Origin: Candidatus Nomurabacteria bacterium
GTDB taxonomy: Bacteria; Patescibacteriota; Minisyncoccia; Phycocordibacterales; UBA9973
Direction of reading: 5' to 3'
NCBI GenBank assembly: GCA_026396065.1
Contig: JAPLXO010000010.1
Location: forward strand, 59,058-112,109
DNA: 53,052 nucleotides
This document shows, in pieces, positions 733 to 17,241 of the stretch (its first letter is position 1; the number at the start of each line of letters is the position of its first letter). The translations under genes and the position numbers were made by a program. Under the pieces are notes generated by a model. The model was not told the origin of the DNA and searched no databases. It saw only the letters and a program-made list of their open reading frames with translations.

Positions 733-2655
733 ATGGATTTTAATTTTTTAAAGAAGAAAGATGAGTCAAATAGTGGTAAGAAAAAAGGTGGGGAGCAACC
801 TAAGGGTCCTAATTTTACAAAGAGTATAGCTGGAATGTTGTTAATCTTTATGATTATCACGGCAGTATATTTGGCTGTATCTGGAAATATAAAAGATATA
901 ACAGAGGTTTCAATTTCTGATTTAGCAAAGAGTGTATCTCTAGGAGAAGTAAAGAGTATTGAAGTCTCAGGAGAGACTCTGACCGTTTCTTATAATAATG
1001 GAGATATAAAAGAAGCAAAAAAAGAAGTAGAATCATCTTTGTCTCAAACTTTATTTAATTATGGAGTAAAAGCCGATGTATTAGCAAAAACTGGCATTAC
1101 AGTAAAAAATGAAAGTGGTATTGGTTATTGGCTTTTGAATATTTTACCTTTTGCATTACCAATTTTATTTATTATATTTTTCTTTTGGTATCTTTCTCGC
1201 CAAGTAAAAGGTGCAGGAATGCAAGCATTTTCTTTTGGTCAATCAAAAGCACGTATCACTGACCCAAATGATAAAAATAATAAAGTCACGTTTAAAGATG
1301 TAGCAGGAAATAAAGAAGCTAAGCAAGAACTTTCTGAAATTGTAGATTTTTTGAAAAATCCAAAAAAGTTTCTCGACATTGGCGCACGAATTCCAAAAGG
1401 TGTAATGCTCACAGGTGCACCGGGAACAGGAAAGACTTTACTCGCTCGAGCAGTAGCAGGTGAGGCAGGCGTGCCATTTTTCCATTTATCTGGATCTGAA
1501 TTCGTTGAAATGTTTGTCGGTGTCGGAGCAAGCCGTGTACGTGATCTTTTCAAAATGGCAAAGAAAGCAGCTCCAGCAATTATTTTCGTAGATGAGATAG
1601 ATGCAGTAGGGCGTGTGCGTGGTGGAGGTTTTGGTGGTGGAAATGACGAACGCGAACAAACATTAAACCAAATACTCGTGGAGATGGATGGTTTCGAACC
1701 AAATGAAAAAGTAATTGTAATGGCTGCTACAAATCGCCCAGACGTCCTAGACCCAGCACTCCTTCGCCCAGGACGCTTTGATCGTCGTGTAATGCTCGAT
1801 CTTCCTGATCGTGCAGACCGTGAAGAAATTTTAAAAATTCATTCTCTTAAAAAACCATTTGCTGAAGATGTGAACCTTACAGTAATTGCCGAACGCACAC
1901 CTGGATTTTCTGGAGCAGATTTATATTCATTGATGAATGAAGGTGCAATCCTAGCTGCAAGGGAAGCTCGTAAAAAAGTACATCAATTTGATCTTATTCG
2001 CGCAATTGAAAAAGTAATGCTCGGTCCTGAAAGAAAAAGTCATTTACTTTCTAAAAAAGAAAAAGAGATTACTGCATATCACGAAGCAGGTCATGCTCTC
2101 GTAGCCTCTGTGCTTCCTTATGCTGACCCAGTACACAAAGTTTCAATCGTTGCTCGTGGCAGTGCTGGAGGTTATACATTGAAGCTTCCACTAGAAGATA
2201 GAAAACTTCAAAGCAAAAAAGAATTCATTGATGATATCGCTATGTCTATGGGTGGATATGTCGCTGAGAAAATGATTTTCGGAGATATTACTACAGGACC
2301 AAGTAGTGATTTACAAGTGGCATCACGACTCGCTCGTGCTATGGTAACTCGTTTTGGAATGTCTGACCTTATTGGCCCAGTGGTATTTGTCGAAGATGGT
2401 GGAAATTCAAAATGGGGAGGAAGTAGTGAAAAAGGATATTCTGAAGAAATTTCTGCACAAATTGATAATGAGGTAAATAGAATTGTTACTGACGGAATAA
2501 AATCTGCAGAAAAAGTTTTGACAGAAAATAGAAAAGCACTAGATGCTATAGCGAATGCCTTGATAGATGTAGAAACACTTGAGAGAGAAGATTATGAAAA
2601 GATAATTATTGCCAACGGAATTTTGCCAAAGAAAAAAGATGAAGTAAAAGTTTAA
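733..2655 (+). CDS. ftsH: ATP-dependent zinc metalloprotease FtsH
   Basis: Two TM helices, Walker [17 protein letters not shown], second region of homology RPGRFDR, HEAGH zinc motif. Confidence 0.98.
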
Positions 2656-9852: not shown

Positions 9853-11178
9853 ATGCAGAAAGAAAACAAAAAAGAAAATGAGTTGATGGAAAAAATAGTG
9901 AGCCTTTGTAAAAGACGCGGTTTTATTTTTCAAGGTTCAGAAATTTATGGTGGAATGGCCGGTTTTTATGATTATGGTCCACTCGGTACACTTCTTAAAA
10001 GAAATATTGAGAAATCGTGGATAAAGCAGTTTGTCGAGTTTAAAGAAAATGTATATTTGATTGATACGCCGATACTCATGCATCCTCGTGTATGGGAAGC
10101 ATCAGGGCATACGGCAGAATTCGCGGATCCTCTTGTGGAGTGTAAAAAGTGTAAAAACAAGTTTCGCGCTGATCAGTTAGATAGTGACAAATGCCCAAAT
10201 GATGGAGAAACACTTGGTGCTATTTCAAAATTCAATCTAATGCTTGAAACAAAAGTAGGAGCGTCAGAAGATACATCAATAAAAACATATCTTCGACCAG
10301 AAGAAGCACAAAATATTTTTATTGATTTCAAAAATATTGTAGATTCTTTTTCACCGAAACTTCCTTTTGGCGTGGCTCAAATCGGTAAAGCATTTCGAAA
10401 CGAAATTACCCCGCGAGATTTTATTTATCGTTTGCGTGAATTTCAAATAATGGAAATGGAATATTTTATTCACCCAGACATCGCATGGGAACCGATTTTC
10501 GATTCATTTTTGGCAGAACAAAAAGATTGGCTTGGCAGTATTGGAGTGGATATAGAAAAATTGCATCCAATGGAACATCCAGAATCTGGACGGGCGCATT
10601 ATAGTAAAAAGACAGTTGATCTCGAATTCGAATACCCATTTGGGATAAAAGAACTCACTGGCCTCGCACATCGTGGAGATTTTGATTTAAAAAAACACGA
10701 AGAATTTTCTGGAGAAAAAATGGGAATTATGGATGAGGAGAAAGGAGAAAGAGTTGTTCCTCACGTGATTGAACCGACAATCAGTGTTGATCGAGCAATT
10801 TTAGCGCTTATGGTTTCTGCTTATCGTGAAGAAATAATAGGAGAAGATACTCGTGTATATCTCAAATTTCCACCACACATCGCACCATATAAAGCGTGTG
10901 TTTCTCCGTTATTAAAAAATAAACCAGAATTACAAACAAAAGCGCGTGAAGTTTTTTCTATTCTCAAAAAAGAATTTGGTTGGATTACATATGATGACAA
11001 CGGCAACATCGGCAAACGCTACCGCCGACAAGACGAAATCGGTACACCTTGGTGTATCGTCGTCGATTTCGACACACTCACAGATGATACTGTCACTGTC
11101 CGTGATCGTGATACTGGAACTCAAGAGAGAGTGAAAGTAATTGATTTAGTTTCTTATATAAAAGAGAAGTTGAATTAA
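9853..11178 (+). CDS. glyQS: Glycine--tRNA ligase, alpha2 (homodimeric) type
   Basis: CKRRGF..SEIYGG, LRPE, GKAFRNEITP, PHVIEP and IGKRYRRQDEIGTP motifs. Confidence 0.96.
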   Translation: MQKENKKENELMEKIVSLCKRRGFIFQGSEIYGGMAGFYDYGPLGTLLKRNIEKSWIKQFVEFKENVYLIDTPILMHPRVWEASGHTAEFADPLVECKKCKNKFRADQLDSDKCPNDGETLGAISKFNLMLETKVGASEDTSIKTYLRPEEAQNIFIDFKNIVDSFSPKLPFGVAQIGKAFRNEITPRDFIYRLREFQIMEMEYFIHPDIAWEPIFDSFLAEQKDWLGSIGVDIEKLHPMEHPESGRAHYSKKTVDLEFEYPFGIKELTGLAHRGDFDLKKHEEFSGEKMGIMDEEKGERVVPHVIEPTISVDRAILALMVSAYREEIIGEDTRVYLKFPPHIAPYKACVSPLLKNKPELQTKAREVFSILKKEFGWITYDDNGNIGKRYRRQDEIGTPWCIVVDFDTLTDDTVTVRDRDTGTQERVKVIDLVSYIKEKLN

Positions 11179-11184
11179 AACTGA

Positions 11185-11643
11185 ATGAAAACCCTCACCC
11201 TCGCATTATTATTCCGTGACGAAAAAATTCTTCTCGCGATGAAGAAAAGGAAGTTTGGTGTAGGGAAGTGGAATGGGTATGGAGGAAAACTCGATGAAGG
11301 GGAAATGCCGATTGATGGACTCGTGCGGGAAATAAAAGAAGAAAGTAATTTAAATATACCGAAAGAACTTTGCAAAGAGTTAGGATATATCGATTTTTAT
11401 TTTAATGACAAAGAAGAATGGAATCAAAGAGTGATTATTTATCGTATTGATAATTTTGTTGGTGAGCCAGAAGAAACAGAGGAAATGATGCCGAAGTGGT
11501 TTCCAATTTCAGAGATTCCTTGGCATGAAATGTGGAAAGGGGACGACCAATGGATTCCATACGTAATTACAAATAAAAAATTCAAAGGAGAAGTTCATTT
11601 TTCTGAAGGTGGAGAGAAATTGGTAAGTTGTGTAGTGAAATAA
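11185..11643 (+). CDS. NUDIX hydrolase, 8-oxo-dGTP diphosphatase (MTH1-like)
   Basis: KKRKFGVGKWNGYGGK, Nudix box REIKEES, ETEEMMPKWF, MWKGD. Confidence 0.9.
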   Translation: MKTLTLALLFRDEKILLAMKKRKFGVGKWNGYGGKLDEGEMPIDGLVREIKEESNLNIPKELCKELGYIDFYFNDKEEWNQRVIIYRIDNFVGEPEETEEMMPKWFPISEIPWHEMWKGDDQWIPYVITNKKFKGEVHFSEGGEKLVSCVVK

Positions 11644-11653
11644 AAAAATCAGA

Positions 11654-13072
11654 CTATTTTTCAATAGCCTGATTATAGAATTTAATGAGTGCATCTGGAT
11701 TTATTTTTTCATATTTTTCCAATGCTTTTTTGAGTTGTGAAGGAATATTCGCATATGTTTTATACACAAGTAAAATATAACCTATGTATCCTTTTGCTTT
11801 TCCTTGGATACTACTATCTTGTAGTGATACATCTTGTTGTGCGTCAATGCAAGCATGATGCAAAGCAGAACGAATTTTCCTCTGTAATTTTTTAGGAATT
11901 GTTGGTCTAAAATAATACCAGGGCGTCCATGCTTTTAAGCAATGTCTCGCTCCAGCTATTTTGTCATCCACCATTTCTTTTAGTTCTGCTCGAGTTTTTC
12001 TGTGCCTCACTAAACGTAACCCCGTAACAAGTGGTACTTCAACTCCTACTTCGTAGATATGAATTTTCTTTTTATTGAATTTCCATATAGTAGTTTTTTC
12101 TATCGTAGCGATCACTTTACGCAATTCTTTAGAAAGCTTAACCTTGGAGAGATAAGAGTCAGTGCTAATAGTTATGTTATCAACATATACTGAAATACAT
12201 TGATGTGTGTCTGGGTAAGATTTTGGAGTTCTATATCTTAAAAAAGATTTGAAACTCGAAATCATTTTTGTGTGTGACAATACAAGTGCCATCGCAATTG
12301 GTGATGTGGGGGACCCCTGCACTAATTTGTTTTGATATGTAAGTACTTTGGACAAAATTTCAGCCATGTCATTACACAATTCGTACATTTCCTCTAGTCC
12401 GTTTGGTTTACGTATTTGAGCACGTAATGCCTTGTTTGCCTTGTTTGTGAACAATAAACGCCTTTTTTTGAATCGCAGATCTAGATAAGTTAAATCGTAC
12501 CGATTCTTACTTTCCCAGGCTTCAAAAATTGAATCGTTAGAGGTAATTTCACTTACTTTTTTGTCGACAAGTCCGTTGATTACTTCCTCGTCAACGGTGT
12601 CGTGTTTCTTTTTTAAGAACTCCCTGTGGTTTTTACTTCTCAGAAACTTTTTATATCTGAATTTGTAAAAACATAGTTCATCATATAGTAAATCTACTAG
12701 AGCATTTTTTAGTGAGAGCGAATCTACACAATGAAACGCATCTTTTAAGTCAACATCTATGATGAAGTTTGGAGTAGTGAAGACATGCGATTCTATACCT
12801 CCTAGTGTCGAGCGTTTCGGTACACCACCATAACAGTAATCGGCTATCATTGGACCTGTTGAGATCTTTGATAGGAAATTTTTGTAAATACTTTGTTGAA
12901 CTAATTTTGTTGTTTCTTTTGGTGCGTGAATAGTTCTTTTCCCGCCTGAACGTTTTGGTATCGTAAAAATTCGATATTTTTGATTCGAATATACTTCTTC
13001 CAAATGTTCGACTTTTGTGTTTGTAGCATCTGCAAGTATGCGAAATGCTTCCATAGATAGCTGTTTTTCCAT
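11654..13072 (-). CDS. Retron-like reverse transcriptase with atypical YVDN active site
   Basis: YRIFTIPKRSGGKRTIHAP, DLKDAF (aa108-113), QGSPTSP (252-258), YVDNITIS (296-303), FNKKK and the retron region-Y VTGL (349-352). Confidence 0.88.
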   Translation of the reverse strand: MEKQLSMEAFRILADATNTKVEHLEEVYSNQKYRIFTIPKRSGGKRTIHAPKETTKLVQQSIYKNFLSKISTGPMIADYCYGGVPKRSTLGGIESHVFTTPNFIIDVDLKDAFHCVDSLSLKNALVDLLYDELCFYKFRYKKFLRSKNHREFLKKKHDTVDEEVINGLVDKKVSEITSNDSIFEAWESKNRYDLTYLDLRFKKRRLLFTNKANKALRAQIRKPNGLEEMYELCNDMAEILSKVLTYQNKLVQGSPTSPIAMALVLSHTKMISSFKSFLRYRTPKSYPDTHQCISVYVDNITISTDSYLSKVKLSKELRKVIATIEKTTIWKFNKKKIHIYEVGVEVPLVTGLRLVRHRKTRAELKEMVDDKIAGARHCLKAWTPWYYFRPTIPKKLQRKIRSALHHACIDAQQDVSLQDSSIQGKAKGYIGYILLVYKTYANIPSQLKKALEKYEKINPDALIKFYNQAIEK

Positions 13073-13093
13073 TTATTTGGGTTTTACATATTT

Positions 13094-13290
13094 GTTTATT
13101 TATTTTTCAAAGAAAACCGGTCGCCGCAGATGTAGAACACCTGCGGCTCAATTCATTCTATGCACGTAGTGCATGCCTTGGTTAATATGGCATCATACCA
13201 CAACCATCTGACGTTCAAATCCATAGCTAGAAACTAACTACTTGAAATAAAGAACTATTCAATGAAATGTTCATTAATAGAAACCGGGTT
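13094..13290 (-). ncRNA. Candidate RT-associated structured ncRNA (msr-msd-like)
   Basis: Non-coding leader between the promoter and the RT ATG, with hairpins at 13255-13280, 13173-13193, 13160-13174 and 13123-13147 and imperfect terminal inverted repeats. Boundaries are approximate. Confidence 0.6.
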
Positions 13291-13296
13291 GTTTTT

Positions 13297-13325
13297 ACAA
13301 TAAACTTTTTTATATTATTTGTCAA
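13297..13325 (-). promoter_or_regulatory. Sigma70 promoter for the ncRNA-RT unit
   Basis: Minus strand TTGACA (13325-13320), 17 bp spacer, TATTGT (13302-13297). Confidence 0.7.
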
Positions 13326-13365
13326 TATTATATAATAAAGAAAATTTTATGATAGAATAGTCAGC

Positions 13366-14720: not shown

Positions 14721-15800
14721 ATGCAAGAAAACAACAAAAGTATGGCTATTTCTATTACTACCAGCACGATGATTCGCATTGTTTTGGTTTTACTTGGTTT
14801 CTTTTTACTTTATTATTTAAGAGATTTAGTGCTTGTGATTTTGACATCTATTGTAATAGCTTCTTTTATCGGGTCTGCAAGTATTCGTATGAAAAGAATT
14901 GGTATTGGAAGGGTTTTTGGTGTAATTTTGCTGTATGTAGTAGGCCTTACTTTTCTATCGGGAGTGTTTTATCTTTTTGCACCGTTGCTCATTACAGAAA
15001 TTTATAATTTTTCTGCATTAATTTCAAATTATTTCCCAGATTCAGGTATTTTGAATTTCTTCCATAGTGATACATTTTCTGGAGCAAAAGACGTAGTGGC
15101 TAATCTTCAAAATAATTTATCTATTAGTACATTACTTACTACTTCTAAAGCTTTTGTTTCAAATTTATCTAGTGGATTTTTTAGTACATTATCTTATGCT
15201 TTTGGAAGTATTTTCAACGTAGTATTAATTGTCATAATTTCTTTTTATCTTTCTATACAAGAAAATGGTATTGAAGGATTTTTACGTGTAGTTGTACCAC
15301 AATCACATGAAGATTATGCAGTAGAACTTTGGGAACGTGTTCGCCATAAAATTGCTCTTTGGATAAAAGGACAAATGGTATTAGGTTTTATTGTAGCTAT
15401 TTTAGTCTATCTTGTGCTTTCAATTATGGGTATAAAATATGCTTTGCTTTTGGCTGTTCTTACAGGGCTTTTTGAAATCGTACCTTATGGAATGATCGTA
15501 TCTATGGTGCCGGCTATTGGCCTTGGTTATCTCTCTAGTGGATTTTCAGGGGCATTAATGGTAGGTGGTGCCTATTTTATAATTCATCAATTTGAAGCTT
15601 ATCTTTTAGCCCCACTTATTGTGAAGCGTGTTACAGGTCTTTCACCTCTACTTGTTATTTTATCTCTTTTGGTTGGTTTTGAATTGGCTGGTTTTTGGGG
15701 AGTAATACTCGCTGTTCCAGCTGCCGTATTTACAATGGAGCTCGTTAACGATATTGAAAAAAGAAAAGTATTTCTTCGAACTAGTCATGAGCAAAAATAA
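14721..15800 (+). CDS. AI-2E family transporter (PerM-like)
   Basis: Multi-TM protein with WIKGQ, IVPYG, QFEAYLLAP and GFWGVILAVP. Start moved to the ATG 6 nt after TGCTATAAT. Confidence 0.88.
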   Translation: MQENNKSMAISITTSTMIRIVLVLLGFFLLYYLRDLVLVILTSIVIASFIGSASIRMKRIGIGRVFGVILLYVVGLTFLSGVFYLFAPLLITEIYNFSALISNYFPDSGILNFFHSDTFSGAKDVVANLQNNLSISTLLTTSKAFVSNLSSGFFSTLSYAFGSIFNVVLIVIISFYLSIQENGIEGFLRVVVPQSHEDYAVELWERVRHKIALWIKGQMVLGFIVAILVYLVLSIMGIKYALLLAVLTGLFEIVPYGMIVSMVPAIGLGYLSSGFSGALMVGGAYFIIHQFEAYLLAPLIVKRVTGLSPLLVILSLLVGFELAGFWGVILAVPAAVFTMELVNDIEKRKVFLRTSHEQK

Positions 15801-17241
15801 TTTTTACATTACTACTACTCTTCCATATGTAAATGCAGATCTTCATATGGGCCATGCACTAGAATTTGTGCGTGCAGATATTATTGCGCGATATAAAAAA
15901 TTGCAGAGTTTTGATGTATTTTTTAATACTGGTACAGATGAACATGGAATGAAAATATATGAGAAGGCTGTGGCTGAAGGGAAGACGGCTCAAGAATTTG
16001 TAGACCAAAAATTTTTACATTTCAAAGATTCAGTAAAAATTTTTGGCATGTACGAAAGTACTTTACATTTTGCTCGCACGACAAATGAAAATCATATTCT
16101 CGCAGCGCAAGAATTTTGGAAAAGAGTTTATGACAATGGTTATATTTATAAAAAGAATTATGAAGCGAAATATTGCGTAGGTTGCGAAGAGACAAAAAGT
16201 GATTCTGAATTAGTAAACAATGAATGTCCTATCCACCCTGGGCGAGCACTCGAGACTATTGCTGAAGAAAATTATTTTTTCAAATATTCTGAATTCACAG
16301 ATAAACTTTTGGATTTCTATAAAAAGAATCCAAATTTCGTCGTTCCTGATTTTAGATATAACGAAATAAAATCTTTCGTAGAAAGAGGATTGCATGATTT
16401 TTCTATTTCTCGTTTGAAAGAAAAAATGCCATGGGGCATACCTGTGCCAGGAGACGAAAACCATGTGATGTATGTATGGTTCGATGCTTTGACAAATTAT
16501 ATTTCTACACTTGGGTGGCCAGAAACTTCAGGAGATTTTGAAAAATATTGGGTAAATGGAAATCCTACACAATATTGTGGTAAAGATAATCTTCGTTTTC
16601 AATCTGCAATGTGGCAAGCGATGCTAATGGCTGCCGATTTGCCAAATTCTCATCAAATAGTGATCAATGGTTTTATCACAGCTGATGGAGGAATAAAAAT
16701 GTCCAAGACATTAGGTAACGTAGTTGACCCGAAAGAAATTGTAGCTGAATATAGCACAGACGCGCTTCGATTTTTCCTTGCTAAAGAAATTTCTTCTTTT
16801 GAAGATTCACCCTTTACTATGGAGCGTTTTAAAGATTCTTATAATGCAGGACTTGCGAATGGAATAGGAAATCTCACTAGTCGTATTATGAAAATGGCAG
16901 AGACAAATTTGGAAAGCCCTACTGAAATTCCAGAAATGAAAATCTCTGAAGATTGGGAGCCAGCAATAATTGCCATGGAGAATTTTAATATTCAAGAAGC
17001 GATGAGTGTGATATTTAAACATGTGTCCGAACTCGATGAAACTATTCAAAGTAAACAACCATTTAAACTTGTAAAAACAAATAAAGAAGAAGCTGTAGAA
17101 ATTATAAAAGATTTAGTTATAAAACTTCACAATATTGCAGTGATGCTCACACCTGTGCTTCCAGAAACAAGTAAAAAAATTATCGAAATTACAAAATCCG
17201 GCAAAATGCCAGAACAACCACTCTTTTTGAGAAAAGACTAA
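15787..17241 (+). CDS. metG: Methionine--tRNA ligase (short form)
   Basis: YITTTLPYVN, HMGH, GTDEHG, YVWFDAL and KMSKT motifs. ATG at 15787. Confidence 0.96.
   Translation: MSKNNFYITTTLPYVNADLHMGHALEFVRADIIARYKKLQSFDVFFNTGTDEHGMKIYEKAVAEGKTAQEFVDQKFLHFKDSVKIFGMYESTLHFARTTNENHILAAQEFWKRVYDNGYIYKKNYEAKYCVGCEETKSDSELVNNECPIHPGRALETIAEENYFFKYSEFTDKLLDFYKKNPNFVVPDFRYNEIKSFVERGLHDFSISRLKEKMPWGIPVPGDENHVMYVWFDALTNYISTLGWPETSGDFEKYWVNGNPTQYCGKDNLRFQSAMWQAMLMAADLPNSHQIVINGFITADGGIKMSKTLGNVVDPKEIVAEYSTDALRFFLAKEISSFEDSPFTMERFKDSYNAGLANGIGNLTSRIMKMAETNLESPTEIPEMKISEDWEPAIIAMENFNIQEAMSVIFKHVSELDETIQSKQPFKLVKTNKEEAVEIIKDLVIKLHNIAVMLTPVLPETSKKIIEITKSGKMPEQPLFLRKD

Follow-up and report, generated by a model that had tools for sequence, protein, structure and literature searches.

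The stretch analysed here (the window) comprises 53,052 nucleotides of a Candidatus Nomurabacteria contig (JAPLXO010000010.1) and encodes, on its minus strand, a retron-type reverse transcriptase (RT) whose motif C reads YVDN instead of YxDD. Comparison with related sequences indicates that this Asn (N299) is one half of a paired palm residue swap maintained by selection, the other half being D106, two residues before the catalytic Asp of motif A. The gene is preceded on the same strand by a structured non-coding RNA (ncRNA). With moderate confidence, we favour the view that the protein is a rewired and active polymerase that forms, with its own ncRNA, a retron-like module lacking an effector. 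The RT is intact and under selection, and it belongs to a small family from bacteria of the candidate phyla radiation (CPR; Patescibacteria).

Motif C of the RT reads YVDN

The gene and the two coupled positions lie as follows:
11654..13072, minus strand: retron-type RT gene, 472 amino acids (aa), intact, stop codon included, from the open reading frame (ORF) and its translation
12176..12187, minus strand: motif C, Y296-V-D298-N299, codons TAT GTT GAT AAC
12755..12757, minus strand: D106 (GAT), at position -2 relative to the motif-A Asp, covarying with residue 299

As the sequence-only reading had stated, the codons from 12187 to 12176 on the minus strand encode Y296-V297-D298-N299, and AAC is a single transition away from GAC. 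The translation also confirms that D108 and D298 are kept and that the frame is open, with no internal stop. YVDN is a genuine motif C, because the family profile alignment pairs it with the YADD of the retron Ec67 RT and because the Pfam RVT_1 match (6.1e-10) spans aa 227-340. Sequencing support was taken from the assembled contigs of public DNA runs. In the probable source run, a single contig covers 11600-13395 at a word depth of 16.1 with 0 differences; in a second run of that study, made from another sample, a 291-nt contig covers 12132-12422 (depth 2.4), again with 0 differences. An assembly error is unlikely, since the contigs of two samples agree without any difference.

Position 299 varies among relatives

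A search of 5.8 billion proteins returned 16 full-length homologs (33-52% identity, E 7e-146 to 3e-79), the next match lying at E 1.5e-7. In the resulting family of 17, residue 299 is Asn in seven members (window protein included), Gly in three, Ser in three and Asp in four, i.e., 13 of the 17 have no Asp there; the three Gly299 members are the nearest relatives of the window protein. By contrast, Y296, D298 and D108 are invariant (17/17), and the family alignment contains 49 invariant columns across 33-52% identity.

These data bear directly on the possibility that YVDN is a private recent mutation or a sequencing error, as the sequence-only reading had considered, or else the mark of an incipient pseudogene or an assembly error. 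The single transition between AAC and GAC speaks for such an event, but this explanation is extremely improbable: close homologs are far from uniformly YxDD, 12 of the 16 full-length ones also lacking the last Asp, residue 106 has changed in step, the ORF is intact in a family with many invariant columns, and the second-sample contig carries identical codons.

Among 1.84 billion representatives searched exhaustively with HMMER, 105 proteins reached E<=1e-10, of which 12 reached E<=1e-30. Overall, 182 relatives were retrieved, of which 107 have motif C aligned; the other 75 align over their N-terminal half only and were left uncounted. The third motif-C residue is Asp in all 107, while the fourth is Asp in 72, Asn in 27, Gly in four, Ser in three and Glu in one. 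In a quick IQ-TREE phylogeny of 72 full-length rows, built with the trait columns excluded, the family forms an 18-row clade (SH-aLRT 100, P0040 included), and a separate 9-row clade (support 100) is uniformly YxDN. At least seven changes between Asp and non-Asp occur on this tree. Support is poor for 25 of the 69 inner branches, too many for the tree to order the events inside the family.

Residues 106 and 299 change together

All profile columns were scanned for association with Asp versus non-Asp at position 299. Position 106 ranked first, with a mutual information of 0.82 bits of a possible 0.91, versus 0.47 for the runner-up column. The combinations found in the 72-row alignment are the following:
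K106 with D299: 20 of 72 rows
R106 with D299: 15 of 72 rows
Q, N, T, H or C106 with D299: 9 of 72 rows
Q106 with N299: 10 of 72 rows
E106 with N299: 7 of 72 rows
D106 with N299, the pair of the window protein: 4 of 72 rows
D106 with G299: 3 of 72 rows
D106 with S299: 3 of 72 rows
M106 with N299: 1 of 72 rows

A basic residue at 106 is thus paired with D299 in 35 of 35 cases, and an acidic one with N, G or S299 in 17 of 17; conversely, K/R106 is absent from the 28 non-Asp299 rows and D/E106 from the 44 Asp299 rows of this alignment. The 18-row family clade shows no exception, with K106 and D299 in five rows, and D/E106 with N/G/S299 in 13. The tree yields five phylogenetically independent contrasts on well-supported branches (seven on all branches), the five agreeing in direction; the partner residue moved in the same direction in 4.6 contrasts on average and never in the opposite one.

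Retron-like RTs were also drawn from 10 other genomes of a 401-genome Patescibacteria sample, outside the 182 relatives. All nine that could be evaluated obey the 106/299 rule (L027 was left out):
L018 and L019: motif C YVDN, Q106 in both
L022: motif C YGDN, S106
L024: motif C YADN, G106
L026: motif C FADN, C106
L020 and L021: motif C YADD, K106 in both
L023: motif C WIDD, K106
L025: motif C YADD, A106

The position of residue 106 in the palm presumably corresponds to that of V108 in the RT of human immunodeficiency virus type 1 (HIV-1), which adjoins the YMDD hairpin. This placement, together with the covariation, suggests that the side chains of residues 106 and 299 touch. The canonical K/R106 and D299 form would have a salt bridge at this contact, and the derived form a hydrogen bond or a relocated carboxylate.

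Sequence and fold identify the protein as a retron-type RT

The best PADLOC matches of the RT are the retron RT models RT_III-A (2.7e-26), RT_VI (3.9e-25) and RT_II-A (4.3e-24). All 25 PADLOC families listed for it are retron RT models, no DRT model is among these 25, and NCBIfam gives no Drt match. The NCBIfam retron_St85_RT match (4.8e-23) reaches 81.8 bits, below the cutoff of 235. The protein indeed scores below the cutoff of every named retron type, which places it outside all defined types; its match to the PADLOC RT_Ec107-like model is weak (1.1e-15). The family profile matches 13 distinct solved sequences, every one of them named as a retron or retron-type RT. An AlphaFold2 model built from the 72-sequence alignment (mean pLDDT 94.2, pTM 0.91) has retron RTs as its nine top structural matches, Ec78, Ec86, Eco7, Eco2 and Ec83 among them, with Z scores of 18.7-21.1 and about 290 of the 472 residues aligned. 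Scores are lower for an RT of a diversity-generating retroelement (DGR; Z 18), group II intron RTs (about 16), DRT2 (13.8) and DRT9 (12.2).

The conserved elements of the protein, other than motif C, are these:
12785..12802, minus strand: region X, aa 91-96, GGIESH at the position of the retron NAxxH; H96 invariant in 17/17
12728..12751, minus strand: motif A, D108-L-K-D-A-F113-H-C, with the catalytic Asp and an aromatic residue at +5; D108, D111, A112, F113 and C115 invariant in the family
12338..12721, minus strand: insertion separating motifs A and B, about 125 aa long (aa 118-245) and helical throughout, with helices assigned at 118-244 by DSSP on the AlphaFold2 model
12299..12319, minus strand: motif B, Q252-G-S-P-T-S-P258; Q252, G253, T256 and S257 invariant
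12065..12076, minus strand: motif D, N333 to K336, both residues invariant in the family
12020..12028, minus strand: region Y, V349-T-G351, the retron VTG triplet, within VTGLRLV in the window protein; G351 invariant in the family

Retron RTs are characterised, in an excerpt of Mestre et al. (2020; PMC7736814), by a VTG triplet, in which Gly is the most conserved residue, and by an NAxxH motif, in which His is. G351 is invariant in all 72 rows of the full-length alignment. Region X had been described as altered in the sequence-only reading; this holds insofar as the window protein reads G92-I93 and has no N92, but H96, the most conserved residue, is invariant, and the region is less altered than claimed. 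Of the 17 family members, 10 have N92 and none has A93. The residues that fall outside the retron RT structural alignment include the helical insertion. In the ESM Atlas, the insertion (aa 116-246) has no informative look-alike (best feature score 0.81, TM-score <=0.43), and the C-terminus (aa 356-472) matches only RT thumb/maturase-like models.

A structured ncRNA lies upstream of the RT gene

The gap of about 265-370 nt that precedes the RT gene, on the same strand, is conserved in sequence in the window and five independent loci, namely L001 (from a Saccharibacteria metagenome-assembled genome), L002 (from a Nomurabacteria metagenome-assembled genome), L003, L005 and L006; L004, from a metagenome, has the same sequence as L002. 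It contains the following elements, among them stem-loops (SL) 1 to 5:
13111..13296, minus strand: structured ncRNA, 186 nt, conserved upstream of the RT in six loci
13287-13282 with 13122-13117, minus strand: closing helix P1, 5-6 bp, covarying as CCGG/CCGG, CTGG/CCAG and CCGA/TCGG
13280-13255, minus strand: SL1, a sequence-conserved hairpin
13241-13223, minus strand: SL2, a sequence-conserved hairpin
13212-13175, minus strand: SL3, a variable hairpin
13174-13160, minus strand: SL4, a variable hairpin
13160-13152, minus strand: invariant 9-mer UAGAAUGAA, between SL4 and SL5, at the same place in all family loci
13147-13123, minus strand: SL5, a hairpin of 10-14 bp that covaries and stacks on the closing helix, with a U-rich tract after it
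13297..13325, minus strand: promoter-like TTGACA-17-TATTGT, matching the consensus at 10 of 12 positions, which would start the transcript beside P1

The six sequences were trimmed to 186-211 nt for consensus folding with RNAalifold, which gave 38 pairs, 20 of them with a compensatory change. Paired cells amount to 93%, versus 21-44% after a shift of the partners by 1-3 columns, and none of 500 shuffles reached any of the five observed measures. The window ncRNA itself folds with a minimum free energy of -60.6 kcal/mol (z -5.06). Its layout, with paired ends, conserved 5' hairpins and a variable 3' hairpin, matches that of retrons. Rfam has no family for the region at E up to 10, where only chance-level matches appear (E 4.9-8). 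A covariance model of the ncRNA finds exactly one copy in the 800-kb genome and has no match in 13 other loci, which include other CPR RT loci. In the Patescibacteria clade in which Q106 and YVDN are fixed (L018 in G036, L019 in G008), the RT gene is also preceded by a gap of about 280 nt (1160-1443 in L018) with several GC-rich hairpins, and this gap is not matched by the covariance model of the window family.

In the window fold, only the first U of the 9-mer UAGAAUGAA is paired, closing SL4. The AAUGAA within the 9-mer is a repeat of the 5' strand of SL1 and could compete for the SL1 3' strand; the corresponding pairing with the UUCAUU of SL1 was inspected by eye and dropped, as it is unsupported in L002. 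In the window, L001, L002 and L005, a U-rich tract comes after SL5 and the 3' strand of the closing helix (13111-13147, minus strand). This arrangement resembles a leaky terminator and could set the 3' end of the ncRNA about 40 nt ahead of the RT start codon; a consensus scan called no terminator at this site. At the other end, the TTGACA of the promoter-like element is aligned in the window and L001, with TGACA at the same columns in L006; the element is a putative promoter by its consensus match. Promoter-like sites are not enriched in the region (6 found versus 7.0 expected). A DRT2-style endless ORF over the whole P1-enclosed RNA was considered and rejected: no stop-free frame crosses the ncRNA, every frame of all six ncRNAs containing at least one stop.

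Evidence bearing on polymerase activity

In RTs, the residues listed below serve in binding the triphosphate of the deoxynucleoside triphosphate (dNTP), in deoxyribose selection, in catalysis and in the primer grip. They were compared between 35 non-Asp and 72 Asp relatives, each count referring to the sequences aligned at that position:
K40: 27/27 non-Asp, 43/43 Asp
R46: 27/27 non-Asp, 41/43 Asp
D108: 28/28 non-Asp, 45/45 Asp
F/Y113: 28/28 non-Asp, 45/45 Asp
Q252: 34/35 non-Asp, 70/72 Asp
G253: 35/35 non-Asp, 72/72 Asp
Y296: 35/35 non-Asp, 68/72 Asp
D298: 35/35 non-Asp, 72/72 Asp
K336: 34/35 non-Asp, 72/72 Asp
G351: 35/35 non-Asp, 71/72 Asp

Catalytic and dNTP-binding residues are equally conserved in the two groups, and a protein that only bound RNA would have no evident need for them. 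There is also a natural precedent for an RT with this motif: as described in part of a preprint (bioRxiv 10.1101/2021.11.23.469668), nematode belpaovirus RTs are natively YVDN, in an element with identical long terminal repeats (LTRs).

Several points weigh against an active polymerase that uses the ncRNA as retrons do. In a partial text on HIV-1 RT (PMC1976467), D186N serves as the mutation by which metal binding is disrupted at the polymerase site. Gly or Ser at position 299 is unable to ligate metal, and the clade with Q106 and N299 has no third carboxylate, so that catalysis would there depend on two Asp alone. With five contrasts, the sign test for the coupling cannot fall below p 0.0625. 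On the RNA side, all six ncRNA loci were used in deriving the fold, which leaves no independent test set; the closing helix, at 5-6 bp, is short for the a1/a2 repeats of retrons; and there is no evident branching G at its 3' edge, where the window reads UCUAUU, the invariant G12 of the ncRNA sitting inside the helix.

The main rival reading is a polymerase-dead, domesticated RT that binds, and perhaps chaperones or senses, the ncRNA and retains the palm as an RNA-binding scaffold. The HIV-1 mutant, the occurrence of Gly and Ser at 299, the lack of an evident branching G and the fact that no conserved or fused effector was found at the family loci examined all fit such a protein. It is nonetheless unlikely in our view, given that K40, R46, D108, F113, Q252, D298 and K336 are as conserved in non-Asp as in Asp members and that the change at 299 is compensated at 106, unlike what drift would produce. 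In addition, the YVDD members (4 of 17) share the architecture of the others and, in locus L005, the same ncRNA, which makes a functional split inside the family unlikely.

It is also conceivable, if quite improbable, that the swap marks an altered chemistry, in which D106 and N299 would shift metal preference (e.g., to Mn2+), nucleotide choice, priming (protein-primed or de novo) or templating, with the single-stranded UAGAAUGAA as a short template or initiation site. With the coupled swap, the charge surrounding the metal site does change, all six ncRNAs have the invariant, largely unpaired 9-mer, no canonical branching G is seen, and two-component RT-ncRNA systems with unusual products exist, as partial accounts of DRT9 indicate. 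On the other hand, nothing points positively to any particular alternative, no DRT-class model is among the 25 PADLOC families listed or the NCBIfam matches of the protein, whose structural Z scores are 13.8 and 12.2 for DRT2 and DRT9 versus 21 for retrons, and the stops in all six ncRNAs leave no frame open across the RNA.

A proposed mode of action

In the favoured reading, that of an active, rewired polymerase, the RT would be transcribed behind its own ncRNA of about 186 nt, both forming a self-contained two-part module. D108 and D298 would hold the metals and carry catalysis, while residue 299 would have a structural role paired with 106; the last Asp of YxDx would then be a dispensable metal ligand in this clade. 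The RT most likely copies part of its own ncRNA into DNA, as retrons do, and copying probably begins at SL5, adjoining the 3' strand of the closing helix. Both polymerase activity and DNA synthesis from the ncRNA are predictions here. The module possibly has an accessory role, perhaps a defensive one, with which its patchy distribution and its insertion among core genes would fit.

A broader and more speculative proposal, which we put forward only tentatively, is that this is a retron-type RT lineage common in CPR bacteria in which the third carboxylate has moved from motif C to the motif-A strand (D/E106) or has been dropped (Q106/N299). Such an RT would still polymerise, its metal site being rewired and its preference for metals or nucleotides possibly changed; it would act with the ncRNA alone, its product or the RT-RNA complex being the effector.

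Genomic context and distribution

Two further features delimit the module in the window:
11647..11674, minus strand: terminator-like hairpin of 12 bp with a T-run, overlapping the stop codon of the RT gene and common to this gene and the convergent NUDIX gene, from the consensus scan
11179..13365, no strand assigned: 2.19-kb block (NUDIX gene, RT, ncRNA) between the genes for glycyl-tRNA synthetase and M16 peptidase, from comparison with the genomes G284 and G256

In both of these congeneric genomes, the ortholog of the synthetase gene has the peptidase gene directly after it, at a distance of 20 nt (G284) or 2 nt (G256). Since the two genes adjoin there, the 2.19-kb block is an insertion in the present genome; the RT family was not found in either of the two at E<=1e-30. 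Elsewhere, the RT gene has different neighbours at every locus, most of them housekeeping genes:
Window: glycyl-tRNA synthetase, MutT-like NUDIX gene, M16 peptidase
L001: alanyl-tRNA synthetase, SWIB protein
L002: PriA-like protein, small ORFs of no known kind
L005: ScpA/ScpB, class II tRNA synthetase

Inside the insertion, a gene for a MutT-like NUDIX hydrolase (11185-11643, plus strand) converges on the RT gene, their stop codons being 10 nt apart. It was considered as an effector and rejected, as it lies beside no other family RT. With the window protein as query, the gene was not found in G284, and in G256 it occurs elsewhere (38% identity). A nucleotide-pool hydrolase beside an RT could be coincidental or meaningful. 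The module has aminoacyl-tRNA synthetase genes on its flanks at three loci, the window (9853-11178 and 15754-17241), L001 (1942-3723) and L005 (3170-4594 and 4832-5545), which in such small genomes is probably due to chance.

The family is rare: with the profile at E<=1e-30, it was found in one of 401 sampled Patescibacteria genomes, its own, and this search added no locus to the ncRNA alignment. Pattern-based scans found two loci in a species-genome collection and four in metagenome contigs, and no family relative in viral contigs. The same genome contains a second RT (locus L007, G000:C7:45040-48681; RT at 1279-2310, plus strand, 343 aa) with a canonical YADD. Beside this RT, a small ORF (905-1249, minus strand, 114 aa) matches the DGR Avd model at 1.6e-17, below cutoff, and the locus is probably a diversity-generating retroelement.

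Significance

The final Asp of YxDD is taken as the mark of a live RT, and its absence is routinely read as inactivation. The natural variation described here shows that one retron-like clade can exchange this residue, though only alongside a specific partner residue, and it cautions against declaring such RTs dead on the motif alone. The module, an RT with a new structured ncRNA and no effector, set among the housekeeping genes of an 800-kb genome, represents a further retron-like system, as yet uncharacterised, from bacteria about whose defence repertoire little is known. Full-text literature searches, which covered articles without their supplements (e.g., the RT lists of Mestre et al., 2020), returned no account of YxDN-type motifs in prokaryotic RTs, nor of retrons in Patescibacteria/CPR, the belpaovirus preprint being the sole relevant match. 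While the retron kind of the protein is known, the rewired motif A/C pair and the new ncRNA, in an effector-less retron-like module, are new.

Comparison with known systems

Retrons (Ec86/Eco1, Ec67/Eco2, Ec78, Eco7, Ec83, Eco8) are the closest known systems: they provide the best sequence and structure matches of the window RT, which has the VTG triplet and the region-X His, and, as in retrons, the RT gene has immediately upstream, on its own strand, a structured ncRNA that a terminal helix closes. The window RT nonetheless differs from them in scoring far below every curated type cutoff, in the helical insertion, about 125 aa long, that separates its motifs A and B, in its YVDN motif C combined with D106, and in reading GIESH at the NAxxH position, while its ncRNA has a short closing helix (5-6 bp) and no evident branching G. 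In contrast to the tripartite retron defence systems (types I-XIII), the window module has no conserved or fused effector. In this respect, it resembles the orphan (msr-msd)-RT cassettes, since it consists of an RT and an ncRNA with no associated protein; stand-alone cassettes of this kind are known in RT clades 2 and 11 and as Retron-Eco5, according to excerpts of Mestre et al. (2020; PMC7736814). As far as these excerpts go, the orphan cassettes are branches of classified proteobacterial retron clades, whereas the window family only weakly matches RT_Ec107-like.

Outside retrons, the nematode belpaovirus (Bel/Pao) RTs share the natural change from YxDD to YVDN, in elements that seem to have been recently active, as far as the partial preprint text goes; they belong to eukaryotic Gag-Pol-Env elements and are related to the window RT by the RT fold only. 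DRT2 and DRT9 similarly associate a single RT gene with a cis-encoded structured ncRNA and have no separate effector, but the window RT is of another class, with structural Z scores of 12-14 for these proteins versus 21 for retrons. Finally, in the polymerases of non-segmented negative-strand RNA viruses, GDN replaces GDD at motif C. By analogy only, these RNA-dependent RNA polymerases, although different from RTs, provide a case of active palm-domain polymerases whose motif C ends in Asn, as it does in the window protein.

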